Assembly (NCBI GenBank): GCA_046563655.1
Contig: CM102286.1
Span: forward strand, 14,818,001 to 14,882,000
From: Yuukianura sp. NJ FZ-2021
Taxonomy: Eukaryota
Reading direction: 5' to 3'
DNA length: 64,000 nucleotides
Below, in pieces: positions 1 to 36,519 of the stretch; the first letter of the stretch is position 1; each line of letters begins with the position of its first letter. The notes below the pieces were generated by a model. The model saw nothing but the letters and a program-made list of their open reading frames with translations. It was not told where the DNA came from and did no database searches. The translations under genes were made by a program, and so were the position numbers.

Positions 1-2
1 TC

Positions 3-104
3 GCCAATGTCGCTTGGAAGAAACCAGAAATTGCATTGAAAAAAGTCAATGCTAATCTTAAAAGACCATCTTCTTCTTCCTACGCAATGACTCTGAGCAT
101 ATGA
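3..104 (+). CDS. Possible 3' end of a gene entering from upstream (ANVAWKKPEIALKKVNANLKRPSSSSYAMTLSI*)
   Basis: Open frame from the window edge to TGA at 102-104, then AT-rich sequence with AATAAA near 262. No recognisable domain. Confidence 0.3.
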   Translation, partial: ANVAWKKPEIALKKVNANLKRPSSSSYAMTLSI

Positions 105-1744: not shown

Positions 1745-3063
1745 TTAGTTGTGAACGTTACCGGTTGTGAACATCAGTGGTTGTGAACTTTTGATGCTAA
1801 TTGCTACAAGTAGGTTTGAAGTGTAGACGACGATTGAGTTGAGTATAGGGAGTATCGCCTTGTTCGTCATTGGTAGAAACACGCCAATTCGAAATTCTAT
1901 TGGTCGACGCGTGCGCAGTACTTTTTGCTCCATTTTGGACCATTGACGGACCGTCTCGCGTTTCATTTCTGCTAAAAATTTGGTTGAAAGTGCCGGAACG
2001 TTTGCCATTTGTCCAAAAAATACCAAAACGACAAGGAGCAGATATACAGCGTAACACAACGCCATGAGTCCAATGATTCCGTGGATTTCAAATTGTGTTA
2101 TGCATATTGACAGACTAACGATAGCTCCTACCATAACGTGACTCAGCAGCATCGAGAACACGATTGGTCCAAGGACAGAGTTCACAACTTTTTCCAGCAC
2201 ACAGGCATGACCATACAATTGACCTGCACGAATCCGGGTATTCGGATTTTTCAAGTCCATTTCCAGTAGAGTTTGGATTGTTTCGTTAAATCTGAGGGTC
2301 GATTCGTGACAAATTACGGTAACGTAGATGATACTTGTACAGGCAAAGTCCATTGTAATGAAATACTGCAAGAAAGCTTCAATCCAAAACTGAAATTCTC
2401 GGAAATTTTTTGAACAGGTCAAAATTTCTTTGAGAAATGCAAAGTTGCAGTCAAGTACGGCTGAGAACGGGGTCATGAGGGTCATGCTGGAGCAAAAGGC
2501 ACCAAAAATCATTACAATTCCAGGGAGTTTTGAAGGGGCGTGGTCAGGATGTGTTGCTAAAAATTCAAAATTTACTCAAATTTTGTCTTTTCCTGAAATC
2601 AAATTAAATTTTTTAAAAAGAACTTACATAAAAATTGTTCGTAGGTTTGAATGGAGAGATTGAGTAGATCTGAGAATCGTTTGTAGTTTGAGTTGAAGAT
2701 AGTGTAGACATGGATTAGTGTGGACAAAATGTTGACGTTGAGCAGGAACATGCGTACTAGAATGTCAAAGGGAGAGGTCAAGTCTCTAACTGCGACTGAA
2801 TGGATGAATTTGAGGAGACAAGTGACCTTGAGTGTCACGGTGAAAGTTGTGGTCATGACCCAGCGTAAATATGCAAACCAGGTCAAGGGAACGACTCTTC
2901 TCTTTGAGTAATCGTAACGATATGGCGTAAAACCATAAAAATAACAAAGGTTTAAGCAGTAACTACGTCCACGATGACTCAATTCTTCACCATCAATTTC
3001 TAGAAGTTCAGCAACATGTTTTTTAAATACCAACCATAACTTCTGCAATAAGTGACACTTCAT
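1745..3063 (-). CDS. Gustatory-receptor-like 7TM chemoreceptor (~415 aa), exons 3063-2628 and 2556-1745
   Basis: A phase-1 GTAAGT..TTAG intron joins the two ORFs in frame. Multiple hydrophobic helices. C-terminal RPIEFRIGVFLPMTNKAILPILNSIVVYTSNLLV resembles the GR/OR TM7 region. Confidence 0.7.
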
Positions 3064-3990
3064 TGTCCTTAAATAATTATTTATATAATAATAATAAGTT
3101 ATTATATAATAGTAATAATAAAGTAATATATACACTTGGTACTTATCTGCTGTCTACTTGTACCTATGAAAAACAATGCCAAGTCAAATCAATTTTTGAC
3201 AATTTCTACAACCGGTGTCAAACTCAAAACCGCAATTTGGAAAGTTTTTTCGGAACATGATTTCAAGTGGTGGAGTGACGCAAGGTCAAGCATGAATTTT
3301 TCAAAATTTTGATCAAATTCTTTTCAAAATTGCATCGCAAATACACATTCTTCCAAAATTCAGTTTTTAACAACAAACATTGCTACATTTTATATAATTC
3401 GAGTGAAAAATTGGGCATGAAAGTACATTTTGTTTTTTGGAAATTTTAACTCGTGCAGAATTGTAAGAGTCATTTACTGTGTAATTTGTGGACGAAATGA
3501 TAACAAAAATATCAAAATTGAATGTTGTTCAAAGCACAGAATCCAAATATTTGCTTTTCTTTCAAAATTGTTTATATTTTTGAAACTTCATATTGTAAAA
3601 ATCATTGGGAATAAAATGTATATGCGAATCATGTTGCCTACTTATTTTGGTTACGTAATTGAGCAATGGAAAAAGTAGACTGAATTTTAAAAACCACATT
3701 TGGAGAGATTAGGTAAAAGAAATTTGCCTCAAAGCCTCAAAGAGGAAATTGATCAAAAGTTGTTTTAATTGTTTTAATCATTAATTTTTAGACCAACTTT
3801 TAGCCAAAGTCAGTTTCAGCGGTTAGCAAAATGACAAGCTCAGTTAGTGCTTCTGTGGGCTTCATCTCGCTACCTCGGACTTCCGTAAGGTAAAAACTTC
3901 CACTGTTGACCTTTGACCTCTACTTTTTTCAAGGTTAAAACTTAGTTAAAACGAGGTTAAAAGTTGTTTTAACCCTGTACAGAGCACAAG

Positions 3991-7130: not shown

Positions 7131-7841
7131 TTATTTCTCCGACGCTTGTTTTTGGTACAAAACGTCCGTGCGGACGGTGTATTTGGTTCCTCCTTTGACC
7201 TCTGACCCCTCGTGCAGAATGCCATGTTCAAATACCAGGATCATTCCGGTTTCCGGTACGACCGGAACTCTGTTTCGGTTTGCCAAACCGAACCACGAAC
7301 TTCCCACGCCCAGAAACGTCGTTTCACCCCCATCAAATCCCTCATTTAAATAAATCTGCAGTGTAATGAGCGTCTCTTCTTCGCCTTTTTTCCTAATGTA
7401 GGATCCATCACAGTGTTGTTTGAATTTCCCGCCTTTTTGGTATTTCAAAAACCGCAGGCGTTCGTTGATCTCTAGCAGATTCCACTTCTTGTCTTTGGTT
7501 CCGCGATAATTACATTTTGGCGGCAAAAAAGATTTGATTCTTTGAAACAGAATGGCGCTAAATTGTGGATCGTCGATCATGACTCGTTCTCCATCACGAT
7601 ATCCCGCTGCCACGACAGCTTCACCATCTCGAATGTTGACCATTGCTATTTGGTAGCCGTATTGTTCCGAAAGTTCAATCAGAGCAGTGCACTCTGCAGG
7701 CGTGAATACATGACGCAACAGAAACGCCAGAGCCCCATAGCGTCCAATTGGTTTCAAATCTAACTGTTCAACGGTGATTTTTGACTTGTCGTAGTTTGGA
7801 TCCAACGCAGAAGTAACGGAACCCTTGATAGCACTTGCCAT
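7131..7841 (-). CDS. 2-oxoglutarate/Fe(II)-dependent dioxygenase (prolyl 4-hydroxylase-alpha-like), intronless, 236 aa
   Basis: NERLRFLKY..G.KF..HCDG (HxD), TLQIYLNEGFDGGETTF, HEG (distal His) and KYTVRTDV (2OG-binding basic residues). Confidence 0.9.
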   Translation of the reverse strand: MASAIKGSVTSALDPNYDKSKITVEQLDLKPIGRYGALAFLLRHVFTPAECTALIELSEQYGYQIAMVNIRDGEAVVAAGYRDGERVMIDDPQFSAILFQRIKSFLPPKCNYRGTKDKKWNLLEINERLRFLKYQKGGKFKQHCDGSYIRKKGEEETLITLQIYLNEGFDGGETTFLGVGSSWFGLANRNRVPVVPETGMILVFEHGILHEGSEVKGGTKYTVRTDVLYQKQASEK

Positions 7842-9111
7842 GCTACAATTCCTTAAAACAAGTTTTAAAAAACTGGCAAATTTAAAACAAAAATTGTTGA
7901 AAAGTTAACTCCTTTTGTAGTTGACCACTCTTATCAAAATAGTGGAAAAGACTGATTCCGTTGAAGTACTTTTTTGGTGTAACAGGACGTAGAAAACCAC
8001 GTAGGTTATTATGAGGTGGAAAACTTTGCGAAAAATACACAATTCCTAATTCACTTTTTTCAAACTCAATTCATCCACAAAAAAATCAGAGATACACTTA
8101 TATAATCACTTGTGTAAGTGAAAACAGTTGTTGTGTTATGTTTTGAATTTCAATAAGCAAAAGAGCAACTTATAAAAAAGTTGATTTCTTACGATTGTTG
8201 CCACAAGTAAGAAGGTTATAAAAATTAGTTTTAGAAACCAGTTTAATTTGTTTTCAAAATATAACTAATACATTTTATTATATTAATTACATTAATATTA
8301 ATATATTATACATTTTCTGTTGTACGGTTCGTTTGTAGTTTGGAACAATTTTCACCTCATGGTGTTCGTGTAATCCTTTCGCCGAATTTCATGTTGGTGA
8401 GTCACTTTCACAAAAAAATAATAACAAAACGATTTCAGAACTTTTTTTTGCATATCTGATGAGGACAACGATAAGTGACTAAACGTCAATCGTTACTGAC
8501 GACTCTGTCCACTTTATGGAAGCTTTTTGCACTCTGACTATTTTTTAGAGTAGTGCACCAAATGTTGAAATTTTAGCTTACTTTCTCCAATAGGCAGAAT
8601 GTCCAAGGAGTCTAATATCTAAGGTAATTTCTTGCCATGCTAAAACATGGTTCAAATGGTTTTTTTTTTAATTTCAAACTGCTTAACATTCGAGATAATT
8701 TGTTTTTAAAAGTTAAATTCCGCTGTCTCTTTTTTTTTTAATTTTTACATTGTTCCTGGAACTGGAAACTATAGATTTGACATTAAAATGCTGGGTTTTG
8801 GCATCTTGCCATGTAGTCTTTCGTTTAGATTAGGCTAGATTTAGGTTAAGGTTAGCTTTTTCATTTTCTAAAAAGTCAGATTTAGTCTCCATCCTGTCCA
8901 AATTAATCTAATCAATTTCGAAGCAGAGCCGATGCTTTCCTCTGCTCAAATGAAAATCTTCGTAGTTTTTGCAACTTGAAACTCAAGGTTTTTGGTGGAC
9001 CGAGGAGAAAGTTTTGAGGAAAGTGAAACCAACGCCCACATTTTGCAAATTTCAAAGCCGGATTTTGTTTTAGCAAAATTAGTTTGTTCAGTCTGTGTCC
9101 AGTAGGCGGAC

Positions 9112-10557
9112 ATGGAAGGTCAGCAACTTTGTGTAGCCATTTCCTGCTTCCTTCTTTTCTGGACATACACTGCAGCACAAAATACTCGAGCAGCACAAAG
9201 TACTGCAACAGCACAAAGTACTGGAGCAGCACAAATTCCAGTACAGAAAAAATTACAAAAGTTTACAATTCATAGACAAGAAGATTGTTCCGACGCAGGA
9301 GAAAGTTATAGCAGAAGTGTGCGAAATTTAAAAAGAGTTTCCACTATTGCAGCATGTGGAGCCATGAAATGCTTTTGCAATCACCATGGAATGTAAGAGA
9401 AGAAATTACTTACCTACATGAAAATTTAAAATTTTGAAATTTTTTGCCAACTTTTTAGGTGGAGTTTTAGCACTTACAAAAATTTCAGACGAACTTTTCA
9501 AAATCCACTGAAAACCGGTTCGTCTCTAATGGAGCTCAACGGAACTTCCTGTGAAAGTCGAAAACTGAATTGGAAGTTTGTGCAGTTAGGGTCCATCCGG
9601 CATCTTGGAAATTCCGACACTTCGATACGAACTTTGAGTCTCTTCCGGTACGAATCTTTTCTCGGTCCGGAGCTGCGTATGACCGGTACTCGTCTGTCCC
9701 TCCCTTTCTCTCTAAGAATCAAGTCTTATGGATTTACTGGCGGCAAATGCTGGTCACTTTTTCAAAATTCAAATTTTGGCGGAAATGTTACTTGCCTCCG
9801 AACTCCCCCCAACGCCTCAAGGTCACTTCTAGGTCACAACTCAAACTTTACCTTAAATTTTGGCTCTGTTTACTTTTTATGTCCAAAAAGTTGTAAAAAT
9901 GGAACCAATCAAACAGAATTTAAAATTCCGCGCCCTCAAAAATTTATAATTTTGTTCACAAGGAGTAACGGAAACGAAAGTTTTTGGAACGAAGACAGCG
10001 ACGCCCTCTACTTTTCTGGAACGGAACTCCAACTTCCGTTTCCTCAAGTTTTTGTCGAATTTTCAATTGGTCAAAATTTTGAAAATCAAAATTTGGAAAA
10101 TAGTGGAGACAAATGGACAATTTACGAAGGAGTTGACTTCAATGGCAAGTCCCGTTGCTTAGCAACGTTTGGACAAAGTTCTGGACTTCGTCTGCGTCGC
10201 TACCGCTTTAGACGCTCTACTACGCTTGAGCATGATGAAGATTTTGTGGATTTCGGAGAAACGTGGTTGATTGGTTCAATTCGATTTGGATGTTTCTCGA
10301 ATCTGTTAGCAGATGAACTTTATGTTCAAGATTACGAAGACACAATCTACGATGATGTGGAACGACAAATCAAAACGGAAGTAGATGAAGACGATACAGA
10401 ATTTTTCCGAAACTCAACTCGACAGAACAGTTCGTCGGTACCAGACTTAGGAAGAGGTACAACCTCTGCTTCTAAGCATAAAGTGCGTTTAATTTTCAAT
10501 CTACATTTGGTACCATTTTTAAATCTTGCTTTTCCGCTGCTTCTGTTAAAAGCGTAA
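9112..10557 (+). CDS. Secreted, probably GPI-anchored protein with beta/gamma-crystallin-like (Greek key) repeats; exons 9112-9392, 9459-10557
   Basis: Signal peptide (LCVAISCFLLFWTYTAA). Three motifs of type W-x-x-Y/F-x3-N/D-F-x-G: GMWSFSTYKNF, CWSLFQNSNFGG, KWTIYEGVDFNG. Acidic/Ser-Thr spacer and terminal hydrophobic tail. Confidence 0.65.
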
Positions 10558-10723: not shown

Positions 10724-13700
10724 TCAAACACAGTTTTCAAAACTGTGGTGTTCAAGTTGTGTCGTTGCATTATTGGCGGCAGATTCAATTTCAAGATTTT
10801 TGAAAAAGCTTTTCAAGTAGGTGAACGAAGGTCTCCGTTTTGGTTCAAGCTCCCAACAGGCCATCATTTGAACATAACTGAAATCAAAACATGCAAACAT
10901 GACCTTTGACCTTTGACATGACCTTGACCTGCTTACATTGGATCTGATGCGTATTGTGGTTTAGACATGCGGAGTCCTTGGTAGAGTTGAGTGACGAATT
11001 CGTTGGTCCAGCCGAGTCCCGGAAATGGGACGCCACCTAGCGAGTAAATTTCCCAAAGTGTCACGCCGTACGCCCACACGTCAGAGTGAGTCGAAAACTC
11101 AAAATCACGCAGAGACTCCACAGCCATCCAACGCCACGGCAAGGGCGCCTGAATGCAAAAATATTTTTTTTTAAACTTCATTTCCGAGAAAGTAGAATAT
11201 ATTTTGAAAGATTCAAAAAAGTTACACTGTTTTTCTTGACATAAATTCCGGATTCGTACAAGTTCCTTGCCAGTCCAAAATCACTGATTTTAGCACTCAT
11301 TTCGTTGGTCATGAGCACATTTCTGGTAGCCAAATCTCCGTGAGTGATCTTTGATTTTAAAAGTTCAAAATTTGGGGAAAAAAATCTTGAAGAAAAAATT
11401 TTGAAACTTTTTTTTTGAAAACTGTGCTTACTTTTAATGACGCCAAATGTTCCATGCCATTAGCAATTTCAGAGGACCAACGAGCAAGATCATTAAAGTA
11501 GAACTCATTTTGTTTTCCCTCTAAAACTTGACGGTTTTTGTACCTTTTATAGAAACATTCCGTAAATTAAAACAAAAAACTTCCTTAAAAATTCAATACA
11601 CTTTGATTTTCAAAATTTAGGGTCTGGTGTACCTAGCATTCCAAACATTTTGTTCATATGTTGGCGTTTTCGTGCCATTCTCAGCTGTTTTGTCCTTGAC
11701 AAACGCCGTTCTGTTCTTTTTGAGAAAACCCTTCAGGTCACCGAGTTCGCACAGCTCCACAGCAATAAACAGCACTCCTAAAGGTCAAAAGGTCAAGCAA
11801 GGTCAAGGTAAAGGTCAATGACCTCTTGTGAAAAATTCGACTTACTTTGTTTGATTTCCCGCGTATAAGCTCCGACCAATCCCACAACGTTGTTGTGCGT
11901 TCCTACTCGCGTCATGATTTTCAATTCAGCCAAAAGTGCTTTGAAATTCTCAACGTCCGCACTAGATTTGAAAGTTTTTACCGCCACGGGATGCGAAATT
12001 TTTGAAAGTCTTTCCCCACGAAGCTCTTCAAAAGTTCCGCGGTACACAACTCCTGTTTGACCACTTCCCAGACTATTCTCCCAGTCTAAAATTCCAAAAT
12101 TCAAAATTTTAATTAAAGAATTTTAAAATTTCAATTTAAAATGTCAGCTTTCCTACCAATGATCAACTGTTCCTTTGGAATTTCGTATTTTGATGCATCC
12201 CATGCAAATTTTTGTGGTTGCGGTGCGTCTTCATTGTCTGGTCCATTTGCGTCAAGGTTCCTTGACAACCGAATTGTATTTCCTACCACAACAGGCGTTG
12301 GTTCTAGATTCGGTGGAGCGGCAGCCAATCCGTGTTCAAATTCTGTAACTTCTTCGTCTGTCAAATCTCTTAATTTTTTCTGTGCTAATTTCATCCTCTT
12401 CCAGAGAAAAATGGCAGCAGTTGCCACAACCAAGATGACAACAGCAGCAGTTCCAAGCAGAGCAATCACTACGTGCCAAAAAAAATTTCTGTCAATTTCT
12501 TTTTAGTTTTTGTTATTTTAGATTTTTGAATTCTGTTACGCAAGCTGGGGTCCGATTTTTTCGTGTCCGAATTTGTAGAGTCCGATGTTTTGGTGTCCGA
12601 TTTTGTGGAGTCCAATTTTTTGGTGTCCGATTTTGTGGAGTCCGATTTTGTGGAGTCCGATTTGTTGCAATCGATTTCGTCTTCGCCTTCTTCGCAATCG
12701 ATTACTCCGTCACACACTTTTGATGCGTTGATACATTTTCCATAAGCTCCGCATCCAAACTCATCTACTTTGCAGGAATTGAAACCATCACAAATAATCG
12801 GATCTTCGTCGGAAGAATCGGAACATTCCGGTTTCCGATTACAAATTACTCCATCTAGCGGAATACATTGGCCATTGTTGCAAGTAAAGTTATTCGGACC
12901 GCATCTTTTCAAAAAATAGAAACTCAGAGTAATCGAACCACTTTAAATTTAGGGTTGGATTGTAATCGATTACCTTTGATTATTTTCTATCCATCTGACG
13001 ATTTGAGGAGTCACATGACTAAAGAAGTAGAGAGCACGTGGAGTGCAAAGTCGGTTCTCAGGGTATAAAGTATTGACACGCCCAAGGTAGAAGTAGTGTG
13101 AATCGGATTTCAATTTTCCATAGAATCCAGCACTTGCTTCGACACAAGAAGTGTGGGAGTTATCTGTAAACCAAAAATAGGTTTTGGCGCCTTTTTTTTA
13201 ATTTCTTGGATAACTTACCACTGGAAACATTGGCACAGACTCGGTTAGTGAAAGGCGCGTGACCATTTTCGGGATCGGAAATCCACCATGCGTGGCATAT
13301 GTTTATAGTGTTAGGAGCCATGCGCAGAACAACTCCTTTGGCTTCGCTCATCTTCCAACCAGACAGAACTACGTCACCAGTGCCATCTCGGTTCCAATTT
13401 GTTAAGATTTTGTTGAGTTTTTGTGCAGGTGGGACGCAGACGGCATGCACCGTAGAGTCAAACTGAATTGGATCCTCGAGATGAATCAGAGCAAACTCGT
13501 CGAGGGAGATGTGCCATTCGTGGGTTTTGATGAGGCCGCTAAAACCCGGAAAAATCCGAACGTGTGTTATCTGAAAATGTAAAAAAACACTGTTAGAAAG
13601 CTAAATTTTGTCCAATTCCCGTAGTCCGGGGGGACTAGAGCGTATTTCTATCCTATGAACACTTTGGTCGTTCGCGTGTTCGAGTCCATGGGTCATCGAG

Positions 13701-14263
13701 TTTCTAAAACTAGATTTCAAAACGTACCGCCGAAACTTGCATGTATGTTGTCACGTCCCTAGTGAAAAGTGTCGTATTGGTACGAACACTGTAGTGAGAC
13801 GGTGCATACAATTTCAGTTTTTTGTTACCGCCCAACAGGAATTTATCAGCCCCTGGTCAATCATAATTTAACAAAAAAAAATTTTTTTACCAAAATTTTT
13901 TGATGTAAATTTTTTGAACCTGTTATGACCAATGTTGGTGACAGAATTACTGCGGGAATGCCTTGGCCTAGTAGACTGTCCGTCCTTACATAAACTACGG
14001 CCGTCCAAGGTAGCTTGATATGCTTATCCCAAGGGAGTTGGTTCATTTGTGGTGAAGGAGAGCCACAAGCTATTTCATCTACAAATTATTTCATCAACAT
14101 CGTATTCACTACACACAAATTTTGCCTAATTTATATCAGATATCAAACTGAACTTACTTGCATCTTCAGGTTGTTCCAAACAAGTTGATAAAACTATGAA
14201 CAATGTGCAAAAAGTTGCAAAGAAAATATAAAAACGGCGGCGCGAAAAAGTTTTTTGAAACAT
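10724..14263 (-). CDS. Receptor tyrosine kinase copy 1: signal peptide, trypsin-like pseudo-protease, 2x LDLa, Ser/Thr/Asp/Lys stalk, TM, PVR/VEGFR-class kinase; 13 coding exons
   Basis: All junctions splice in frame. Protease motifs [47 protein letters not shown]. LDLa [15 protein letters not shown] and [19 protein letters not shown]. Kinase [42 protein letters not shown]. Confidence 0.9.
12549..12663 (-). repeat. In-frame 15-bp coding tandem repeat (~8 units of [10 protein letters not shown]) in the stalk of RTK copy 1
   Basis: Repeated gtccgattttgtgga-like units. Copies 2 and 3 have only a single KSDS/QSDS. Confidence 0.85.
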
Positions 14264-14943
14264 GTTTAAAACATTAAATTTTTTGGAAAACCGGCACTGC
14301 CTGCGATGTCAACATTTAAAATGAGAAGTTAGGTCGCTCAACTAAAAATATGTTGGGGTTATAAATTATTTTTCATTTTGAGATTTTTTTTTGCTTTTAC
14401 CACTGAAATATCCTGCACGTCATTTAAATTCCTGCTAAAAACTCTATCATCAATTCAGTTTCCGCTTTTTAAATTCTTTTTTTAAACGAAAGTTGGTGCG
14501 CTACAAACAAAAAGTCATGTATTTTTAGTGTTGCTTAACACGTCATGTTAGAGGCTGTGGTTAGCAAGAAGTTTGAAAAAAAAATTATATTGGGAGCAAT
14601 AAGTTAATTTTTCAAACTAATTTGCGTCATCGCTTTCGTCCTCATCCTCTTGCTCGTTTTGTTTTTCTAAAAATAGTCGTTTTTTAACGTAATGTTTTAT
14701 TTCTACGAAATTCAAACTACATAATTAAAAAAAAATTTCTTCCTAGATTTTGACATCGTTTACTTGGTTTATACTTTTCGATTACTCCGATTTGTTTTAT
14801 TTCAAATTTCGTTTGCGCGTGTCCTCCATCTGTTATCAGAGATCTGAATAATTGTGAAATTTACACCAAGCATATTTAAGTGTTGATTTTGAAAATTTGT
14901 ATTTTTTTAAACCTTGTTCAAACACAGTTTTTAAAACGTGGTG

Positions 14944-17900
14944 TTAAAGTTGTGTCGTTGATTCAATGGCGGCTGACTCAATTTCAAGATTTTGAAAAAA
15001 GTTTTTCAAGTAGGTGAAGGAAGGTCTTCGTTTTGGTTCAAGTTCCCAACAGGCCATCATTTGAGCATAACTGAAAACAAAATACCTCAACATGACCTTT
15101 GACCTTTGACTTTTAACCTTGACCTTTGACCTTTAGCTTTGGCATGACCTTTGACCTGCTTACATTGCATTTGATGCATATTGTGGTTTTGCCATGCGGA
15201 GTCCTTGGTAGAGTTGAGTGACGAATTCGTTGGTCCAGCCGAGTCCAGGAAATGGGACGCCCCCTAGCGAGTAAATTTCCCAAAGTGTCACGCCGTACGC
15301 CCACACGTCAGAGTGAGTCGAAAACTCAAAATCACGCAGAGACTCCACAGCCATCCAACGCCACGGTAAGGGAGCCTTGTTTCAAAACCAAAAAATGAAA
15401 TTTCGAAACAAAAACCAATTTTGAATGTTGAATTTTGCAACAATTTGGTTACGCTGTTTTTCTTGACATAAATTCCGGATTCGTACAAGTTCCTTGCCAG
15501 TCCAAAATCACTGATTTTAGCACTCATTTCGTTTGTCATGAGCACATTTCTGGTAGCCAAATCTCCGTGAGTGATCTAGTGATTTTAAAATTTTCAACAG
15601 CTAAAAAAATCCAAATCTTAAAACTTTTTTTTTGAAAAGTTACTTTTAATGACGCCAAATGTTCCATGCCATTGGCAATTTCATAACACCAGCGAGCAAG
15701 ATCATTAAAATTGAACTCTGTTTGTTTTCCTTCTAAAACTTCTCGGTTTTTGTACCTTTCCAGAAAAAATCATTTCGCAATTAAAAAGAAAGCTTTCTTA
15801 ATATTTTTTACTTAATAATTAGTTCTGATTTTCATGGTTTTGAGTCCAGTCTACCTGTCATTCCAGACGTTCTGTTCATACGTTGTATTTTTCGCGCCGT
15901 TGTTGTCAGCCGATTTGGAATTCACAAATGCCGTTCTGTTCTTTTTGAGAAAACCCTCAAGGTCACCGAGTCCGCACAGCTCCACAGCAATAAACAGAAC
16001 TCCTAAAGGTCAAAAGGGCAAGGTCAATAACCTTGCTAGTCAAGGTCAATGACCTTTCTAGTGAAGTTCGACTTACTTTGCTTGATTTCCCGCGTATAAG
16101 CTCCGACCAACCCCACAACATTGTTGTGCGTCCCCACTCGTGTCATGATTTTCAATTCAGCCAAAAGTGCTTTGAAATTCTCAACGTCCGCACAAGATTT
16201 GAAAGTTTTTACCGCCACGGGATGCGAAATTTTTGAAAATGTTGTGCCACGATGCTCTTCAAAAGTTCCGCGATACACAACTCCTGTTTGACCACTTCCC
16301 AGACTATTCTCCCAATCTAAAATTCAAAATTTGTTTTAAAAAGAGTAAGAATTTGTTGAAAGTTGAAGTTGTGAATTACTCTACCAATGATCAATTGTTC
16401 TTTTGGAATTTCGTATTTTGATGCATCCCAAGCAAATTTTTCTGGTTTGAGAATTTCTTGATGTCCTGGTCCGTTTGCGTAATTATGTCCATGGAACAGG
16501 CGTTGCTGTTGATTCGCTGGAGCGGCAAGCAATCCGTGTTCAAATTCTGCAACTTCTTCGTCTGTCAAGTCTCTTAACTTTTTCTGTGCCAATCGCATCC
16601 TCTTCCAGAAAAAAATTGCAGCCATTACAACAATCAGGATAACAACAGCAGCAGTTCCAAGCAAAGCAACCACTACGCCGCCAAAAAAAATGATTTTTTT
16701 AAAAAAAAAAGTTGAGTTTTTCGTATTTTAGTTTTGTGGTTATATTGATTTTTCGTACGTAAACTGGAGTCCGATTGTTTGCAATCCATTTCATCTTCCC
16801 CTTCTTCGCAATCGATTACTTCGTCACATACTTTTGACACGTTGATACATCTTCCATAAGCTCCGCATCCAAACTCATCTATTTTGCAGTAGTTGAAACC
16901 ACGACAAAGAATCGGATCTTCGTCTGAAGAATCGGAACATTCCGATTTCCGATTACAAATTGCTCCATCTAGTGGAATACAGTCGCCATTGTTGCAAGTG
17001 AAGTTATTAGGACCGCATCTTTTCAAGAAGTCGAAAATCAAAGTAATCAAATCACTTCGTATTTAAACTTCAATTGTAATCGATTACTTTTGATTATCAT
17101 TGATCCATGTTAGGATTCGAGGAGTGACGTGACTAAAGAAGTAGCGAGCACGAGGAGTGCAAACTCGATTGTCACTGTAAAAATTGTTGACACGCCCAAG
17201 GTAGAAGTAGCGTTGATCAGATTTCAATTTCCCATAAAATCCAGCGCTTGCATGAACACAAGATGTATGTGAATTATCTGTAAACAAAAATTATGAGATT
17301 TCATGAAATTATGAAATGAAATTTTTTTTTGAAAAACTTACTGCTAGAGACAGACAGACAGACCGACAGACAAGGTCAATGCGTAATGTAGCTTTCGCTA
17401 CTTTTAATTACAAAATTGCGTGGCGCCTATTTTTTAATGTTTTGAAAAACTTACTGCTGGAGACATTTGCACAGACGCGGTGAGTGAAAGGGGCGTGGCT
17501 AGTTTCGTTTTCAGCAGTCCAAAATCCTTTGCAAGTCTGAATATTGTTAGGAGCCATGCGCAGAACAACTCCTTGAGCTTCGTTTCTCTTCCAACCGGAC
17601 AGAACTACATCTCCAGTGCCATTTTGGTTCCAATTGGCCAAGATATTGTTCAGCTCATGCGCAGTTGGAATGCACACGGCATGCACTTCAGTGTCAAAGT
17701 GAATCGGATTCTGGAGATGAACTAGAGCAAAGTCGTTAGCGGAAGTGGGCCATTCATCTGTATTGGACAAACCGCTAAAACCCGGGAAAATCCGAACGTG
17801 CGTTACCTAAAAAAGGTTAGGTTTTTTTCAAAATTTCAAATTTCAAAAATTTTGAAACTCACTGGTGAGACTTGCATGTGTATTGTAACGTCGCTGGTGA

Positions 17901-18398
17901 AAATTGTTGTATTGGTACGAACAGTATAGTGGGACGGTGCAAACAATTTCAGTTTTTTGTTACCATCAGAAAAGAATTTAGCAGCACCTATTTTGTTCAA
18001 CACGCTTTTCTCAATTTGGCCAAATTCTTTTGAACTAAAATTTGTTGAGGCAATTTTTTGAACCTGTTATGACCATCGTTGGTGACAGAACTACTGCGGC
18101 AATGCTTTGGTCTGTTTGACTTTCCGTCCTTAGATAAACTACGGCCGTCCACGGTATTTTGATATGCGTATCCCAAGAGTCTTGAAGCATTTGTGGTGTA
18201 GGAGAGCCACAGGATATTTCATCTGCAAATTATTTCATCAACATAGTATTTTCTACACAAAAATCTCAAAGTTATACCAGATTTTAAACCGAACTTACTT
18301 GCAACTTCTGGATGTTCCAAACCAGTTGATGAAACTAAGAACATGCAAAAATTTACCACCAAGCTATATAAACGGCGGGAACGGAATTTTTGAAACAT
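14944..18398 (-). CDS. Receptor tyrosine kinase copy 2 (same architecture)
   Basis: Colinear exons paralogous to copy 1. ATG 18398 (MFQKFRSRRLYSLVVNFCMFLV), stop at 14944, kinase motifs intact. Confidence 0.88.
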
Positions 18399-19006
18399 TT
18401 TTAAAATATGGAACTTTTTAGAAAACTTGTAGTTCCTGCAATCTCAACATTTGAAATGAAAATCAAACAAACCTGCTGGTGTTGCAAATTATTTTTCATT
18501 TTGTGATTTTTTTTTTGCTTTACCACTGAAATATCCTGCAGGCCATTCATTTAAATTTTCCTGCTAAAAAAATCCATTGTCAATTGAGTTTCTTTTGTAA
18601 CTTTTTGTAACAAAAGCTCATATGGTAGACGTCAAAGTAATTTTTTGTGCTCCTTAACGCGTCATGTTTACAGGTTGTGGTTAGCCAAAATTTCGAAAAA
18701 AAAAAAAAAAAATCGGACTCGGGAGCATTAAACTAATTCTTTCAAACTAATTTGCGTCACAGTTTCCGTTCTCACGTTCGTTCCTTAATTTTTAAAAAAA
18801 ATTGAGTCGTATTTCAGATATTATTTTTATTTCTACGTGTTTCAAGTCACCAAATAACACAGTAAGTTTTTTTTTTTCAAATTTTGAAGTATACTTGGGT
18901 TATATTTTTCATTACTCGATTGAAATTTACAAAAGCATCTTTCCCAGTCTAGAAAATTGAAAAGTTGAATAAAAATTTTGTTCAGACACAGGCGTTAACT
19001 GTGGCG

Positions 19007-22000
19007 TTAAAGCTGTGTCGTTATTCCATTGGCGGCGGATTCAATTTCAAGGGTTTGGAAAAAGTTTTTCAAGTAAGTGAAGGTTGGTCGGCGTTTTGGT
19101 TCAAGCTCCCAACAGGAAATCATTTGAGCATAACTGAAAACAAAATACCTCAGCATGACCTTTGACCTTTGACTTTTAATCTTGACCTTTGGCATGACCT
19201 TTGACCTGCTTACATTGCATTTGATGCATATTGTGGTTTTGCCATGCGGAGTCCTTGGTAGAGTTGAGTGACGAATTCGTTGGTCCAGCCGAGTCCAGGA
19301 AATGGGACGCCCCCTAGCGAGTAAATTTCCCAAAGTGTCACGCCGTACGCCCACACGTCAGAGTGAGTCGAAAACTCAAAATCACGCAGAGACTCCACAG
19401 CCATCCAACGCCATGGTAAGGGCGCCTATACTCAAAAATATTTTTAAAAAAGTTTGAATTCCAAAAAAAAGAAGCTGAATTTTGAAAGATTCCAAAAAGT
19501 TACGCTGTGTTTCTTGACATAAATTCCAGATTCGTACAAGTTCCTTGCAAGTCCAAAATCACTGATTTTAGCACTCATTTCGTTTGTCATGAGCACATTT
19601 CTGGTAGCCAAATCTCCGTGAGTGATCTAGTGGTTTTCAGCAGTTAAAAAATCCAAATTTTAAAACTTTTTTTTTGAAAAGTTACCTTTAATGACGCCAA
19701 ATGTTCCATGCCATTGGCAATTTCGTAGGACCAACGAGCAAGATCAGTAAAATTGAACTCATTTTGTTTTCCCTCTAAAACTTCACGGTTTTTGTATCTA
19801 TTCAAAAAAAAGAAGCAAAAATTGTTTTTTGAAAATTTTTAAATTTTTTATCAAAATTTTAGGGCTTGCGGTAGTACCTGTCGATCCAGACATTTTGCTC
19901 ATAAGTTCTTGTTTTCCCGTCGTCAGCCGTTTTGGCATTTTCAAACGCCGTTCGGTTCTTTTTAAGAAACCCCTCAAGGTCACCGAGTCCACACAGCTCC
20001 ACAGCAATAAACAGCACTCCTAAAGGTCAAAGGTCAAAGGTCAAAGGTCAATGAACTATTAGGTCAAATTCGACCTACTTTGTTTGATTTCCCTTGTATA
20101 AGCTCCGACCAACCCCACAACGTTGTTATGCGTCCCCACTCGTGTCATGATTTTCAGTTCAGCCAAAAGTGCTTTGAAATTCTCAACGTCCGCACAAGAT
20201 TTGAAAGTTTTTACCGCCACGGGATGCGAAATTTTTGAATATCTTGAGCCGCGACGCTCTTCAAAATTCCCGCGATACACAACTCCAGTCTGTCCACTTC
20301 CTAAGCTGTTTTCCCAATCTAAAATTGAAAAGTCGAAAACTCAACATTTTAAAATTTAGAAGTTAATTTTCAATTCCTCCACCAATGATCAAATGCTCCT
20401 TTGGAATTTCGTATTTTATTGCATCCCAAGCAAATTTCTCTGGTTGGAGATGAGTTTCCTCTTTTCCTGGTCCGTTAGCGTAATTGTGTCCATGGAAAAG
20501 GCGTTGCTGTTGATTCGCTGGAGCGGCAAGCAATCCGTGTTCAAATTCTGCAACTTCTTCATCTGTCAAATCTCTTAATTTTTTCTGTGCCAATTTCATT
20601 CTCTTCCAGAAAAAAATTGCAGCAATTGCGACAACAAAGATCACGACAGCAGCAGTTCCAAGCAGACCAATCACTACAGAAAAAAATGAAATTTTGAAGG
20701 ATGTTTTTTTTTTGAGTTTTTGCTGTTTTAGAAATGTCGAATTCTCTTACTCAAACTGGAATCCGATTTTTTGCAATCGATTTCATCTTCCCCCTCCTCG
20801 CAATCGATTTCTCCGTCACACACTTTTGATACATTGATACATTTTCCATAAGCTCCACATCCAAACTCATCTAGTTTGCAGTAGTTGAAACCACGACAAA
20901 TATTCGGATCTTCGTCGGAGGAATCGGAACATTCCGATTTCCGATTACAAATTGCTCCATCTAGCGGAATGCAGTCGCCATTGTTGCAAGTGAAGTTGTT
21001 TGGACCGCATCTTTTCAAAGAATCAAAGTAATCACTCTAAATTTAATTTTGGATTGTAATCGATTGTTTTTGCATTATAATCGATTACTCTTGATTATTT
21101 TGGATCCATGTCAAGAGTTGAGGAGTCATGGTACTCAAGTAGTAGCGAGCACGGGGAGTGCACATTCTCTTGTCACTGTAAAAATTGTTGACACGCCCAA
21201 GGTAGAAGTAGCGTTCATTGGATTTCGATTTACCAAAAAATCCAGTGCTTGAATGGATACAAGATGTGTGTGAGTTATCTGTAAACCAATTATAAAGTTT
21301 TACAAAATTATAAAATGGAAATTTTTACTTTTTTTTTTTTAGAAAAATTTACTACTGGAGACAGACAGACCAGACCGACAGACAGGCCAACAAGGTGAAT
21401 GCATAAAGTAGCTTTCGGTACTTAATTACAAAATTGTGGCGCCATTTTTTGAATCTTTTGAAAAACTTACTGCTGGAGACATTGGCACAGACGCGATCAG
21501 TGAAAGGGGCGTCGTTAGTTTCATTTTCCGCATTCCAGAACTGCTTACATGTCTTGAGAGTGTTTGGAGCCATGCGCAGTACAACTTCCTGGGCTTCGTT
21601 CCTCTTCCAACCGGACAGCACTACGTCACCAGTGCCATTTTGGTTCCAATTGGTCAAAATTTTGTCCAGTTCATGCGCAGTTGGAACGCACACGGCATGA
21701 ACGGTAGAGTCAAAGTCAATTGGATCCTGGAGATGGACCAGAGCAAACTCGTCAATGGAGGTAGACCAATCGTGTGTTTTGAACAGACCGCTAAAACCCG
21801 GGAAAATCCGAACGTGTGTGACCTAAAAGTTTTTTCATAAAAAAAAAGTAAATTTTGTGCAAGGGCAATTTTGTAAAAACTACATTTTTAAACTTACCCG
21901 GGAAACTTGCATGTCTGTTGTAATGTCGCTAGTGAAAAGTGTCGTGTTGGTACGAACAGTGTAGTGCGACGGGGCAAACAATTGCAGTTTTTTGTTACCA

Positions 22001-22451
22001 GTAGACAAAAATTTATCAGCGCCTAATTTGATCAACATAAATTTGACCAAAACTAAAATTTGTTGAGGAAAATCATTTTGAACTAAAATTTGTTGAGTTA
22101 AATTTTTTTGAACCTGTTATGACCAAATTCGGTGACAGAATAACTGCTGCAATGCTGATGTCTGGTTGGCTATCAGTCGTTAAATAAATTACAGCCGTCC
22201 ACGGTATCTTAATATGCGAATCCCAAGGGTCTTGCAGCATTTGTGGTGTAGGAGAGCCACAGGCTGTTTCATCAACAAATTATTTCATCAACAAGGCATT
22301 CACTACACAAACATTTTCTCAAATTATTTTATATTAAGCCCAACTTACTTCCATCTTCTGCTCGTTCGAAACCAGTTGCTGAAACTATGAACAATGTGCA
22401 AAAAGTTGCAGCGAAAATATAAAAACGGCGATGGGAACGAAATTGAAACAT
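19007..22451 (-). CDS. Receptor tyrosine kinase copy 3 (same architecture)
   Basis: Colinear exons. ATG 22451 ([23 protein letters not shown]), stop 19007. The exon-2 acceptor appears shifted 9 nt but stays in frame. Confidence 0.85.
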
Positions 22452-23068: not shown

Positions 23069-24756
23069 TTATCCAAAACTAAGGAGGAGAATCATGCAGT
23101 TGATGACATTGGTCGTCATGGATGCAGGCGTATTTTGGTCAATAGCACCGTAAAACCCCGAGTAGAACCCGAACCGTCGAATGGTCAACATCCACCTCTG
23201 CAGACTCTCTCTTTCCACGACACTTACAACGCTATTGTAATTCGGAATGTCCAGAACTGTCGTCCTTATGTCTTCATCGTCCAATTCAGTGGATTCGTCA
23301 CCCTGGTTTCTGCGACTGCGCAGAGTGGGTTGTTTTGTGGAGGGATACAAAAGTACGAGTTGTCGTCCGAGCCAGTGACAAACTTTTTCTGACTGTCTGA
23401 AGATGTTGCCAACTTGTGACATGACCAATAGGAGGAGGATGCAGAAGACGAAAGCGGAGGCTGCGGGGTATGTCCAGTAGATGAACAGAGGAAGATATGT
23501 GTGTCCAGTGAGTGCGACGTAAAGGAGTGCCAAAACGATGAATTGGACGACACCGATGTACCCGGGAAACAGAACCCGGTAATACCCGTTACCGTAGGCA
23601 CAAAACACGACAAGCGACTCGAACCGGTGCAAAAAATAAGCCATTTCGGAATTTCCGAATTTATTGCTCCTAAAATTCAAAACAGAAAGTTCAGGGTACC
23701 GCTATCTTGAATTTTGTAGTAACACGGTACCGTATTGACACTTTATGAAAGAAAGTGGTACTCGGTTAGGGTATAGGAAAACTGAGATTGCGGTACCTAA
23801 AAAGGGGTACGGCGGTACTTTAGACAAAATGGTACCACACTATCTAAAGACCCGCCGTGCTACCGTGGCTCTGTTAAGAAAAGTGGAATTGTGGTGGTCA
23901 AATAAACAGTGTGGTACCGCGGTACTTATTATTTCGGTACCCAAGAGCGAGGTACCAATTCTTTTTAAGCTTACCTGGTAAGTCGACTGAGTTCTTCGAA
24001 CCGTGTGAGGTTGATTTTGAGTGTAACGATGATTGCAATGGTAAGGTAAACCGAAGTAATGGACATGAAACAATCCACATACGAAATGAAAATGACCGCC
24101 ACGCTTTCCGCAATCATGAGTTCCGTACCGAGTTGTCGTTCCGAACTTTTGTAAATTCCCATGACAATCAACACGAACCAAGCCGCATGTCCGGTAAAAG
24201 CCGTCCACCACACTCCCAGAATTCCTTCACTCGAGCAGTACCAGCAGTACTTCTTCCACGAATCAGTCCTCATCCCGTCCTTTTCCGTCTTCTGTCTCTT
24301 GCCGTCCTTTTCCGTCTTCTGTCCAATCTGTTTCATCCTTTCAATGGACATGTCGACTGAATTAAGAAGAAACATGAGGTCATTGACACAGAAGAGACAA
24401 GTGATCTTGAAGACGCCAGAGAAGAACATTGCCGAGAAGAAGAACATGTCGCCCCCAAAGTGAATGTCCATTTTGATCCCGTCTTGGAGCATGGGCCATA
24501 AGAACACAATGATTTTGGTGCCGTTCATACCAAAGTAGAGAGTGGTCATGAAGTAGTAGAGCCAAATGTCGACAGATCCGGGATCGAACCGAACCAGTTT
24601 TACCGGTTTGGTGTTCGAAACGGCCCATTTCTTGCCGGTTTTCCTGTCGCTGTCCAAAATAATATAAAATGGAATCATTCGTAAAAAGGAAAGAACTTTG
24701 AGAGAATTGTAGACAAACTTTTCAGTTTCTTTGCCCAAAGTACTTTTGAATCCCAT
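23069..24756 (-). CDS. Second gustatory-receptor-like multi-TM protein; exons 24756-23975 and 23669-23069
   Basis: A phase-2 intron joins ..SRLT-R-SNKFG.. in frame. Many hydrophobic helices. C-terminal RRFGFYSGFYGAIDQNTPASMTTNVINCMILLL resembles GR TM7. Confidence 0.65.
23693..23958. repeat. Intronic patch built from many GGTAC/GTACC motifs (probable MITE remnant)
   Basis: More than 10 GGTAC/GTACC occurrences in ~265 bp, confined to the intron. Confidence 0.55.
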
Positions 24757-25264
24757 TTTTAAAAATTTTGACTTTTTTTTGGAAAAAAAGTTTTCTCAAT
24801 TTTTTTTTGATTCTGAGTGGAAATGGGGCACAATAGGGACTGACCAGAAAATGATCAAAATCAGTCAAACTATTTAAGAAAATTTATGGCCGAAAATAAT
24901 TGCTTTATTGCAAAAAAAAATCAAAAAGAGCGTCAATTTTGCCTGCCAATTTGAATGTGTAAACAAAACATTTCAATTTTCTTTTCAAGAGCAAAAAGTT
25001 TTTATTGTCTTTTTCATTATCTCATTTTGTAAATCGCTTTCTATTGATCAAAAGATAATGCAATTGGGCAAAAGTCTGCCAAACGCAAGCTAGGTTTTCA
25101 GTAAAATTGAAAAAAGTAGCTAAAATTTCAAATTAGAAAAATCAACAAACGAATAAAAAAGTTAACTCGCCGAATTTTTCCCAACCAGTTTCTTGCATTA
25201 ATTTGTGTACACAGCAGTTTATTATTTTGGATTCAAAAGTTTAATATTTGTGAAAGTTTTTTTT

Positions 25265-33706: not shown

Positions 33707-35837
33707 GGTGAGCACGCAAGGTGAAAAATTGTGACAATTTTTTCGTCGTCAGTGTGAAAAATCTTTCCAATTTTTTCGTCACTGTGCAAATTCTTGTAAA
33801 TTTTTGGCCTGTGAGTTGCCGGATGCCGGAAGTAGACGATGACACACCTTCGTTAGGACTCGTCACGTCCCATACTTTGACTAACTTTGTGGCCCATCAC
33901 CCTAAACTATGTCTGGTGCTTTGGAGATCCAACAATGGACACAGATTAAGCTTTACGGTGTCCAAAATCTATATTTATCCTCCCACTTCTGTTGAATTGG
34001 AACAAACAAAAGAACAAACTCAAAATCACTCTACAAACTTAACACCAAAAAAAAAAGTTTTGTAAAAGTGGAGCCGCCGAGTCCAAGCCACAAAATGACC
34101 ACCTATTTTTAAAATCCGTGATAACAATACGTCCTTTGTCGTTTTTTTAAAAAGCCTTTTCTTAAATTTGTAATGTTTTTTGAAAATTTTCCACTGAGGT
34201 GAACTTAAGTGAGAAGTACAAAGTTGAAAGTCTAAGGAATTATTGAGAAGTGGGGTAGTTACTTCCTCTGAATTTCGTAGAACTGTAAAATGTTGGTGGT
34301 TTTCATGAAAACAGTTAAGTAAAAGAAAAAACTTGTTCTGCATCTAAGTCTGCCGGTTCTGTTCCATCGTCTTTCGTTTGCATTTTACAGAAAAAAGCGT
34401 TCAAATTGTGCAATGTTGTGCCATTTTGAAATTGGAAATGAAATTTTAAATTTTAATGCTCAAATCAACAGTAGAAAATTTGGAACAGTAGAAGTTCCAA
34501 TGGTCATTTTTCTTTGAAGTTGCATCATTTGTCATTGTAGAAAAAAATGTTTCGTCATTTACGTCAAGTGTAAAAGTAAACTTAATCGTTGCACTTTGAA
34601 TGAGTGTCACGAGTCATGGCAAATCACAAGAAACGTTGTTAGATTGTCCAAATTCAAGAACTCTTTGATGACTTAATGCGGAATTTTGAACTTTTTGGTG
34701 CTAATCTGAAGATATTTGTATAATTTTTGAAATGAATGGAGAACTGGAATTAACGGATACTAAATTTTTCAAGTGCATTTTTCAAGATGATTCATTTTGA
34801 AAAACAAGCTTTTTGGAAGTAAAAAATGACACATTTAAACTTGTGTGTGGTACCGTTAACGTGGCGCTGTGTGTTTTAGATAAAAGAAATTCCTTAAATT
34901 TAAATTTATTGTTGATTTACGATTAGTTTGACTTCCGATGATTAAGTTAGACCTTAAGTTTTCGGTGTGTCATGTTTACAATTTTTGAATTTCGCATTTC
35001 AACTGCAACTTCGCAACTTTTTAATTTTGGCGGAACTTTATTTTCGATTAAATCCAGATTTTGTCGTTTGGTGCTCCGTGCTCCAGAAAAAAAGTTTCTT
35101 CTTCCGTTGCATCGTTTGAAAAACAAATTAGAATTTTGTGTTTTACAAACTTTGAAAAATTGATTTCAAAATTGAACTGCACACTACTTTCGTAGAAGTA
35201 GTAAACCCTAAGCATATAAACGCTTCCACTTTAATTATCATTCGGACTTTGTATTTCAACTGCAACTTTTTCAATTTTGGCTGAGTTTATTTTCGATATG
35301 TCAAAAAATTTATTCCGTTCGTCAAGGGTCTATAATGCATCAGATCGACGTTTTCAAGTTTTTAATTTAACATTTTTTGAAAATTTTTCCATTTTGAATT
35401 ATTGAATTCGCACCATTTCGGTGTGGAGAGTGCTAAAAAACTAAACTACTAAAATTACTAAAAACAAAACTTACTAAACTTTTTTTTAGTAAGTGAATTT
35501 AAGATTATGCTGGTTAGGTAATACTGCACTATTTTCCTAACGAATTTGGAAAATATCTCAATTGCAAATTTAAGTTAATGTAAAGTTAAAAAGCTGCAAG
35601 TACCTGTGATTTGGATTTCAAAATGAAGGGGTTCTTGGCCTGGTTCAAAATATTGACCAAGCAGTTTTGTAATGTTTGAAAGTGACAATGATTATTAGCG
35701 TTAGGTTGGACTAAATTTAGTTGACAAAAACGTATTTAAGGACAGTTGTTATGTAGTCAGTATTCAACTTGTTAAGTTGCAGTAAAGCTTGTTACAATTA
35801 ACTTGCAGCGTACCTCAACAAAGAATTCAGCTTCAAC

Positions 35838-36284
35838 ATGATCAAAATGGTAACTCAAAATTAGATTTAGTTTTAAAAAAAAAAAGGCGGGAGTTGTATT
35901 TGAAACTACTCGCTGGCGACAATTTTTGTTATCTGGGAATTTCTGTTTTAGACTTCGGCATTCCTCGTACTCCTTTTCGCTACTGTTGCGATTAGCGAAC
36001 AACAATATGCTGCCCCGCCAGCTCCGTCTTATGGGGCCCCACCAGCACCAGCACCAGCTCCGTCTTATGGTGCCCCACCAGCACCAGCACCAGCTCCGTC
36101 TTATGGGGCCCCACCAGCTCCAGCTCCAGCACCTTCTTATGGTGCCCCACCAGCACCAGCACCAGCTCCGTCTTATGGTGCCCCACCAGCACCAGCATAC
36201 GGCGCCCCTGCTGCCCCTGCAACCCAAGCACCAAGCGGATACGGATCCTACGTTGCACCAACATTCAGTAGTGGCCCATACTAA
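35838..36284 (+). CDS. Secreted Pro/Ala-rich structural protein with 11-aa APAPAPSYGAP-type repeats (cuticle, resilin or eggshell-like); exons 35838-35849, 35952-36284
   Basis: Micro-exon MIKM plus signal TSAFLVLLFATVAIS, then ~5 copies of a 33-bp repeat encoding PSYGAP. Confidence 0.8.
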
Positions 36285-36519
36285 ACTACTTTTAACTTTC
36301 AAAAACTTTGCTTTTAACACGACTCTAGCTCTACTTTATTCCAGATTTTTACTACTAACTTACAAAAGTTTCTTCAAAACCACGAATAAAATGACATTTA
36401 AAAACTTACTACCGTAGTATGTTCGCACGATTTTGTTAGGACTGACAAACCAATTAAATTTGTTATAAAAATTAAAGTTAATCATGCTACATCTCACACC
36501 ATCTCATCATTATCATCAT

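Follow-up and report, generated by a model that had tools for sequence, protein, structure and literature searches.

A 64,000-nucleotide (nt) stretch of the Yuukianura sp. NJ FZ-2021 genome (assembly GCA_046563655.1, contig CM102286.1, positions 14,818,001 to 14,882,000; hereafter the window, in whose coordinates all positions are given) contains three tandem head-to-tail paralogues, g1, g2, and g3, which are predicted to encode receptor tyrosine kinases (RTKs) with an ectodomain built around a catalytically dead protease domain. The three genes lie on the minus strand between 10724 and 22451, and their loci share 82 to 85% nucleotide identity. The domain order in each gene is a signal-like N terminus, an S1 (trypsin-fold) domain, two LDLa modules, one transmembrane (TM) helix, and a tyrosine kinase. 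We consider it probable that each gene encodes a type I membrane RTK whose ectodomain consists of the dead S1 domain and the two LDLa modules, whose kinase is of the PDGFR/VEGFR type with an HGD catalytic loop, and in which the dead S1 domain serves as the ligand sensor. Judged from its sequence, we regard this as a genuine RTK that is specific to its lineage and whose ectodomain is of a new type, and we infer its mechanism.

The gene models are ab initio, built by coordinates from the genomic sequence alone, and exons were joined where a junction connected open frames, was bounded by GT-AG, and recurred in all three genes when these were aligned with one another. The resulting predicted models have 13 exons each and encode 864 amino acids (aa) in g1 (14263-10724), 811 aa in g2 (18398-14944), and 808 aa in g3 (22451-19007). 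The 12 introns per gene are 55 to 192 nt long, all 36 are bounded by GT-AG, and there are no in-frame stops. A previous examination of the letters without database searches (the sequence-only reading) had described three intact 13-exon genes that repeat the order signal peptide, S1 domain, two LDLa modules, TM helix, and kinase three times; both descriptions hold at the sequence level, and the limits given there, 10724 and 22451, are exactly the stop of g1 and the ATG of g3. The intergenic spacers between the genes are 608 and 680 nt, and the window as a whole has short introns and a GC content of ~37%. A tblastn search of the window with the three proteins gave 88 matches and no further copies outside the cluster.

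The S1 pseudo-protease domain is encoded by exons 2 to 5 (minus strand, 12974-14078 in g1, 17088-18222 in g2, and 21089-22263 in g3) and spans residues ~36 to 311 of g1. Homology of its first two-thirds to S1 peptidases is solid on the sequence comparisons that follow. Exon 4 by itself (117 aa) gave 99 PDB matches at E≤10, and the best 60 were all S1 proteases; the best was C1s (E value of 0.0022), in which the segment DEFALIHL falls on NDIALVRL. An HMMER search of 1,835,955,588 representative proteins with exon 4 returned five proteins at E≤1e-3, all five of which carry Pfam Trypsin. Three are ordinary trypsin-family proteins, and the other two are relatives of the ectodomain: P0002 (242 aa, E value of 1.2e-8, Pfam Trypsin at 38.4 bits) and P0003 (247 aa, E value of 1.2e-5, Pfam Trypsin at 41.8 bits), both against a gathering score of 20.6. 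Both come from short environmental contigs, form singleton clusters, and represent ectodomain fragments only. Spliced g1 aligned with P0002 over residues 17 to 247 (E value of 3.7e-26) and with P0003 over residues 40 to 247 (E value of 3.3e-25) when searched with phmmer in a 5-sequence database. Both alignments are ungapped over the exon 2/3 and 3/4 junctions and stop at the exon 4/5 boundary, which provides independent support for the junctions and suggests a common intron position. Since P0002 and P0003 read through the junctions of exons 1 to 4 and end at the 4/5 boundary, their genes seem to be without introns 1 to 3 and to share intron 4. A family profile that combined the exon-4 peptides of g1 to g3 with P0002 and P0003 had 164 PDB matches at E≤1e-3, led by C1s, MASP-3, protein C, and MASP-1 at ~2e-10 (lowest, 1.9e-10). 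When the family was aligned with one canonical trypsin domain, hhalign reported 95.9% across the first 130 residues and, in greedy mode, 96.8% over 217 columns (1-276 against 3-229). In the ESM Atlas, all 30 matches of exon 4 lay in Trypsin clusters (best score, 0.93, with 148 of 256 features shared), which we take as a lead only.

A complete chymotrypsin fold, including exon 5 and the Ser195 region, is likely. Exon 5 was placed as the last third of the domain from the greedy hhalign alignment, which is of low confidence here, together with cysteine spacing, position, and length. The six conserved ectodomain cysteines are at g1 residues 40, 175, 222, 242, 254, and 287, a spacing that we take to match the pairs C1-C122, C168-C182, and C191-C220 of chymotrypsin numbering. 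The sequence-only reading had described a complete chymotrypsin-fold domain; this stands for the first two-thirds, given the family profile and the Trypsin matches in the relatives, and is likely for the exon 5 third, for which no significant match was obtained.

The residues required for catalysis have been altered. In the PDB alignment of exon 4 and the greedy hhalign alignment of the family, the His57 position is occupied by Asp in g1, Ala in g2, and Asp in g3, and the Asp102 position by Glu, Asp, and Glu, respectively, so that His57 is lost in all three copies and Asp102 is kept in one. The Ser195 position is Ser in all three, at low alignment confidence. All three copies lack an (R/K)-IVGG activation site in the segment that links the signal peptide to the first conserved strand, PW(T/Q)A(V). 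The ectodomain protease domain of g1 to g3 is a predicted pseudo-protease, because His57 has been replaced in every copy and the activation site is absent, and the term "pseudo-protease" in the sequence-only reading was well chosen. P0003 keeps both His57 and Asp102, and P0002 has Asn and Ser at these positions. P0003 may therefore be an active protease, and because it retains the His and Asp, the family probably descended from an active protease, with the copies in the window being dead.

Between the pseudo-protease domain and the membrane, exon 6 encodes the two LDLa modules, with six cysteines each, and a stalk (minus strand, 12540-12904 in g1, 16759-17018 in g2, and 20751-21010 in g3). Pfam was run on ten g1 open reading frame (ORF) pieces with a reporting limit of E≤0.1, and Ldl_recept_a (PF00057) scored 61.4 bits over two stretches against a cutoff of 24.1. 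In all three copies the 12 cysteines fall into two groups of six, and the acidic Ca2+ motif is kept in both modules. A coding tandem repeat found with TRF in g1 only (12546-12663, minus strand, ~8 copies of a 15-nt unit) encodes a Ser/Thr/Asp/Lys-rich stalk between the LDLa modules and the TM helix; g2 and g3 are without the repeat and show an alignment gap there. Exon 7 encodes the TM helix and juxtamembrane segment (minus strand, 12157-12468 in g1, 16385-16672 in g2, and 20383-20673 in g3), and hydropathy identifies a single internal TM helix in each copy. The N terminus is basic and then hydrophobic, with a 19-residue Kyte-Doolittle hydropathy above 1.6 in g1 and g3 and a weaker signal in g2. 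The ectodomain is fully covered by the S1-like domain, the LDLa modules, and the stalk, and Pfam reported neither an Ig family on the g1 ectodomain pieces nor a MAM domain on the g1 pieces.

The tyrosine kinase is encoded by exons 8 to 13 (minus strand, 10724-12085 in g1, 14944-16316 in g2, and 19007-20318 in g3), an assignment based on PF07714, the PDB ranking, and motifs. PK_Tyr_Ser-Thr (PF07714) matched four g1 pieces, with E values of 1.3e-11, 7.3e-11, 1.3e-19, and 0.0019, the last of which is below the gathering score. The catalytic motifs, which the sequence-only reading had listed as complete, could be read directly in all three copies: [26 protein letters not shown], [23 protein letters not shown] and DFG, the catalytic loop HGDLATRN, and an activation loop YxxxxY whose two tyrosines are spaced by four residues. 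The kinase lobes are separated by an insert of ~45 residues. The best solved relatives of exon 8 (N-lobe) were VEGFR1, FLT3, PDGFRa/b, CSF1R, KIT, and VEGFR2, with E values from 1.7e-8 and 160 matches at E≤1e-3. For exon 12 (C-lobe), which had 745 PDB matches at E≤1e-5, the top row was a two-stretch EGFR construct, followed by VEGFR1 (6.3e-20), PDGFRa, KIT, VEGFR2, TIE2, and MET. By this ranking of solved structures, the predicted kinase is closest to VEGFR/PDGFR/KIT, in agreement with its earlier description as PVR/VEGFR-like. The likeness to Drosophila Pvr that had been drawn from the HGD motif also finds support: in the excerpted sections of a study of crustacean RTKs, only the PVRs among the receptors studied have HGDLA in place of HRDLA, the PVR consensus motifs resemble the catalytic and activation loops of g1 to g3, and the supplement record for Drosophila melanogaster reads HGDLAARN (PMC11024359). 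Crustacean PVRs carry 2 to 5 Ig-like domains (section 10 of PMC11024359). As predicted, g1 to g3 are members of the RTK superfamily with a PVR-type kinase that lack both the ectodomain by which PVRs are recognized and the catalytic features of S1 peptidases.

The pattern of substitution among the three paralogues was assessed by pairwise Nei-Gojobori estimates of nonsynonymous (dN) and synonymous (dS) divergence for each region. The dN/dS ratio was ~1 in the signal peptide, 0.27 to 0.40 in the protease-like domain (dN of 0.12 to 0.19, dS of ~0.46), 0.12 to 0.32 in the LDLa modules (dN of 0.04 to 0.07), 0.22 to 0.36 in the TM and juxtamembrane segment, 0.07 to 0.21 in the kinase N-lobe, 0.12 to 0.16 in the kinase insert, and 0.11 to 0.17 in the kinase C-lobe. 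All parts of the three genes after the signal peptide are under purifying selection, and, judged by dN/dS, g1, g2, and g3 are all functional. The kinase lobes have a dN of 0.02 to 0.04, and dN in the ectodomain is ~5-fold higher. The dS of the kinase C-lobe is 0.16 to 0.21, compared with ~0.45 in the ectodomain, and a stretch of exon 12 (10966-11136 in g1 coordinates, minus strand) is identical in the three copies, with runs of 101 and 54 nt. The low C-lobe dS and the identical exon 12 runs suggest that gene conversion homogenizes the kinase end of these genes while the sensor end diverges.

We hypothesize that the dead protease domain would be the main ligand-binding sensor, probably binding, as other S1 pseudo-proteases do, through the remnant of its substrate cleft or through its loops, and that the LDLa pair would provide a Ca2+-stabilized second binding site or a spacer. 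Ligand-driven dimerization would then allow the kinases to phosphorylate each other in trans on the two activation-loop tyrosines and on tyrosines in the juxtamembrane segment and insert, and the phosphotyrosines would feed SH2/PTB signaling as in Pvr/VEGFR. Three paralogues that share a homogenized kinase and have diverging ectodomains could couple three ligand specificities to a single output pathway, an arrangement that fits both the conversion of the kinase and the faster nonsynonymous divergence of the ectodomain. A plausible but tentative extension of this scheme is that g1 to g3 represent an undescribed kind of RTK in which the dead S1 sensor uses its vestigial cleft to detect protease inhibitors or ligands that resemble substrates, or acts as a tethered counterpart of the HGF/MSP beta chain, in a tandem family that diversifies the sensor while gene conversion keeps a PVR-type output. 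The roles put forward in the sequence-only reading, namely a serpin decoy, a docking site in a protease cascade, or a tethered analogue of the HGF beta chain, are speculative.

Several results count against an RTK with an S1-derived sensor. The joining of exons is predicted from genomic sequence in all three genes, and the exhaustive HMMER search with exon 4 found no full-length relative with the same architecture among the 1.84 billion representative proteins. Pfam Trypsin did not match any of the three single protease-like exon pieces at E≤0.1, and exon 2 alone and exon 5 alone each had no PDB matches at E≤10. The three-sequence profile of exon 5 likewise had no PDB matches, and the ESM Atlas returned no usable match for this exon. 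Global hhalign of exon 5 was degenerate, with a 4-column alignment and 132 of 200 shuffles scoring at least as high as the real sequence. Needleman-Wunsch alignment of exon 5 with two trypsin C termini was mixed over the six pairs, the real score being reached by 102, 144, 28, 4, 175, and 1 shuffles per 1,000. An AlphaFold model of P0003 made from 5 sequences had a mean confidence (predicted local distance difference test [pLDDT]) of 43.8 and was unusable. The ligand, the dimerization, and the activity of the kinase are things that we infer.

It is possible, though rather doubtful, that the receptor is instead a bait or trap, with the dead S1 domain acting as a decoy for host serpins or microbial inhibitors, or being cut by foreign proteases, so that the protein would work as an innate-immune sensor. 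The Ser195 position and a pair like C191-C220 are apparently kept while His57 is lost, which would be expected of a cleft that binds without cutting; however, the alignment at Ser195 is of low confidence. Tandem duplication and the higher dN of the ectodomain (0.12 to 0.19, against 0.02 to 0.04 in the kinase lobes) would also suit a sensor of this kind, but the ectodomain dN/dS of 0.27 to 0.40 gives no sign of positive selection at the level of the domain. Non-RD kinases are linked to pattern recognition, and the catalytic loop of g1 to g3 is non-RD (HGD), although HGD is simply the PVR state.

A different division of labor, in which ligand binding would fall to the two LDLa modules, as it does in LDLR-family receptors and ALK, and the protease-like domain would be only a structural or autoinhibitory cap, appears unlikely. 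The LDLa modules are the most conserved part of the ectodomain in both dN/dS and dN, the acidic motif is present in both, and ALK provides a precedent for LDLa in an RTK. Yet the 275-residue S1 domain is itself constrained, and it is this domain that has been preserved in P0002 and P0003, which are distant relatives.

About equally improbable is that the gene models fuse two genes, a secreted pseudo-protease-LDLa gene (exons 1 to 6) and a separate kinase gene (exons 7 to 13). Errors of prediction often underlie novel architectures, as stated in part of PMC3927609, the joining of exons 6 and 7 is predicted from genomic sequence, and P0002 and P0003 have been seen as ectodomain fragments only. 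The gap between exons 6 and 7 (intron 6) is nevertheless intron-sized, at 71 to 86 nt ~8 times shorter than the intergenic spacers (608 to 680 nt), is in phase 1 in all three copies, and contains no AATAAA. Exon 7 opens with the conserved TM helix, and no signal peptide or in-frame ATG lies upstream of the helix in this exon in any copy, which would leave a separate kinase gene unable to translate the TM segment; the TM and juxtamembrane segment is constrained nonetheless. Read-through of intron 6 reaches a stop after 7 to 28 extra codons in each copy, and retention of this intron could yield a secreted form in all three. A secreted isoform through intron-6 retention is therefore conceivable in addition to the predicted receptor. 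That the genes are unexpressed or decaying duplicates without present function is very improbable: they are known from genomic sequence alone, g3 has lost the ancestral exon-2 acceptor, and no AATAAA occurs within 400 nt past the g1 stop, but all three frames are intact at 808 to 864 aa despite a dS of ~0.45, dN/dS is below 0.4 in every domain past the signal peptide, and g3 has a replacement acceptor in frame.

An RTK with a dead S1 sensor shares parts with several known systems. S1 proteases of mosaic structure that contain LDLa include matriptase/TMPRSS, corin, enteropeptidase, factor I, and the insect proteins ModSP/HP14 and Nudel. Like these, g1 to g3 combine S1 and LDLa in one predicted extracellular polypeptide, and their nearest solved S1 domains are those of the modular proteins C1s, MASP, and protein C. 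In the mosaic proteases, however, a catalytic S1 domain that is activated by cleavage stands at the C terminus, and no kinase is present, whereas in g1 to g3 the S1 domain stands at the N terminus, ahead of a TM helix and a kinase, and has neither an activation site nor His57. The beta chain of HGF/MSP is an S1 pseudo-protease that acts as a ligand of MET/RON, and it shares with the genes described here a catalytically dead S1 domain tied to RTK activation. The difference is that its S1 domain belongs to a separate, kringle-bearing ligand activated by cleavage, whereas in g1 to g3 it is part of the predicted receptor and no kringle was found; their kinase also ranks nearer to VEGFR/PDGFR than to MET. 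With PVR/PDGFR/VEGFR, g1 to g3 have in common the best solved kinase matches, HGDLA, the activation-loop tyrosine pair, a kinase insert, and type I topology. Those receptors carry 2 to 7 Ig-like domains where g1 to g3 have the S1-like domain and LDLa, and the insert of g1 to g3, at ~45 residues, is shorter. ALK/LTK resemble g1 to g3 in having an LDLa module in an RTK ectodomain, but the MAM domains and Gly-rich region of ALK were not detected in g1, and ALK was not among the best 60 solved matches for exon 8 or exon 12.

It is the ectodomain that defines a class of RTK. PMC9953206 tabulates 20 RTK classes, none with a peptidase domain and only ALK with LDLa, and the consulted part of PMC8662651 describes LDLa as unique to ALK among RTKs; the words "trypsin" and "protease" are absent from the main texts of both papers. 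The statement in the sequence-only reading that no classical RTK class has a serine-protease ectodomain is thus consistent with the class table, whereas its term "new receptor class" is too strong, as g1 to g3 are better described as a domain-shuffled member of the RTK superfamily. That reading had named a published characterization of the architecture as grounds for abandoning it, and a full-text search found no paper on the S1-LDLa-TM-kinase combination, subscription journals being outside its coverage. An apparent lead to an LDLa-bearing kinase, the "low-density lipoprotein receptor" outgroup of the crustacean PVR tree, was rejected as it consists of ordinary LRP-type proteins in the part of the source that describes it (PMC11024359).

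The two fragments P0002 and P0003 are the only relatives of the ectodomain family among the 1.84 billion representative proteins. Word-index homologue searches accepted none of 55 candidates for exon 4 and none of 119 for exon 8, where the 1e-5 cutoff was too strict for the size of the database; exon 12 gave only one insulin-receptor-like protein. No loci of relatives were detected in metagenome contigs, which were searched with the family profile and P0002, or in viral contigs or prokaryote genome contigs. If expressed as predicted, these genes would illustrate cleanly, in a natural case, how exon shuffling can give rise to a new sensor and would link extracellular protease or inhibitor biology directly to tyrosine-kinase signaling. 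With divergent sensors joined to a near-identical kinase, the three paralogues would also make a tractable system for the study of ligand binding by pseudo-proteases.

The exons of g1, in the order 1 to 13 and all on the minus strand as in the other two genes, are at 14263-14158, 14078-13920, 13852-13728, 13570-13219, 13163-12974, 12904-12540, 12468-12157, 12085-11846, 11777-11633, 11543-11432, 11348-11226, 11148-10937, and 10877-10724. Those of g2 are at 18398-18299, 18222-18064, 17987-17863, 17806-17455, 17277-17088, 17018-16759, 16672-16385, 16316-16077, 16002-15855, 15755-15644, 15575-15453, 15375-15164, and 15070-14944, and those of g3 are at 22451-22349, 22263-22114, 22022-21898, 21822-21471, 21278-21089, 21010-20751, 20673-20383, 20318-20079, 20019-19878, 19797-19686, 19626-19504, 19425-19214, and 19133-19007. 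In g3 the acceptor at which exon 2 of g1 and g2 begins has mutated from AG to TG, and the replacement AG 9 nt downstream preserves the frame. AATAAA is located 143 and 176 nt past the stops of g2 and g3, respectively. Introns 8 and 12 of each gene contain microsatellites of the form (TGACCTT)n/(AAAGGTC)n, with position kept and length varying (15093-15157, 20022-20051, and 16019-16066, with g1 equivalents at ~10900-10930 and ~11790-11830).

Among the 109 other ORFs of the window that were searched with Pfam, only 2OG-Fe(II) oxygenase and PDZ were matched. The former is a single-exon ORF of 257 aa at 7134-7904 on the minus strand (PF13640, E value of 2.5e-10), with a weaker match to poxvirus C4/C10. 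The PDZ exons, at 49418-49687 (E value of 8e-4) and 57892-58215 (E value of 2.9e-19), are on the plus strand and probably derive from one large gene at ~48 to 59 kb that also has Pro/Ser-rich low-complexity exons. Long hydrophobic ORFs on the minus strand at 1748-3153, 23072-24795, and 62119-62631 resemble multipass membrane proteins and, by eye, chemoreceptors, and even at E≤10 none of the three matched a Pfam family. A 375-aa open frame on the plus strand (9430-10554), immediately downstream of the cluster, has no Pfam family, its best match being Crystall at an E value of 0.11. A low-complexity repeat at 35775-36414, in the most GC-rich 2-kb bin (44% GC), is open on both strands and would encode a His/Gln/Leu-rich sequence on the plus strand and a Trp/Cys/Arg-rich one on the minus strand. 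The sole Rfam match in the window is a single tRNA at 46747-46816 on the minus strand, which scored 29.4 bits against a gathering score of 29.

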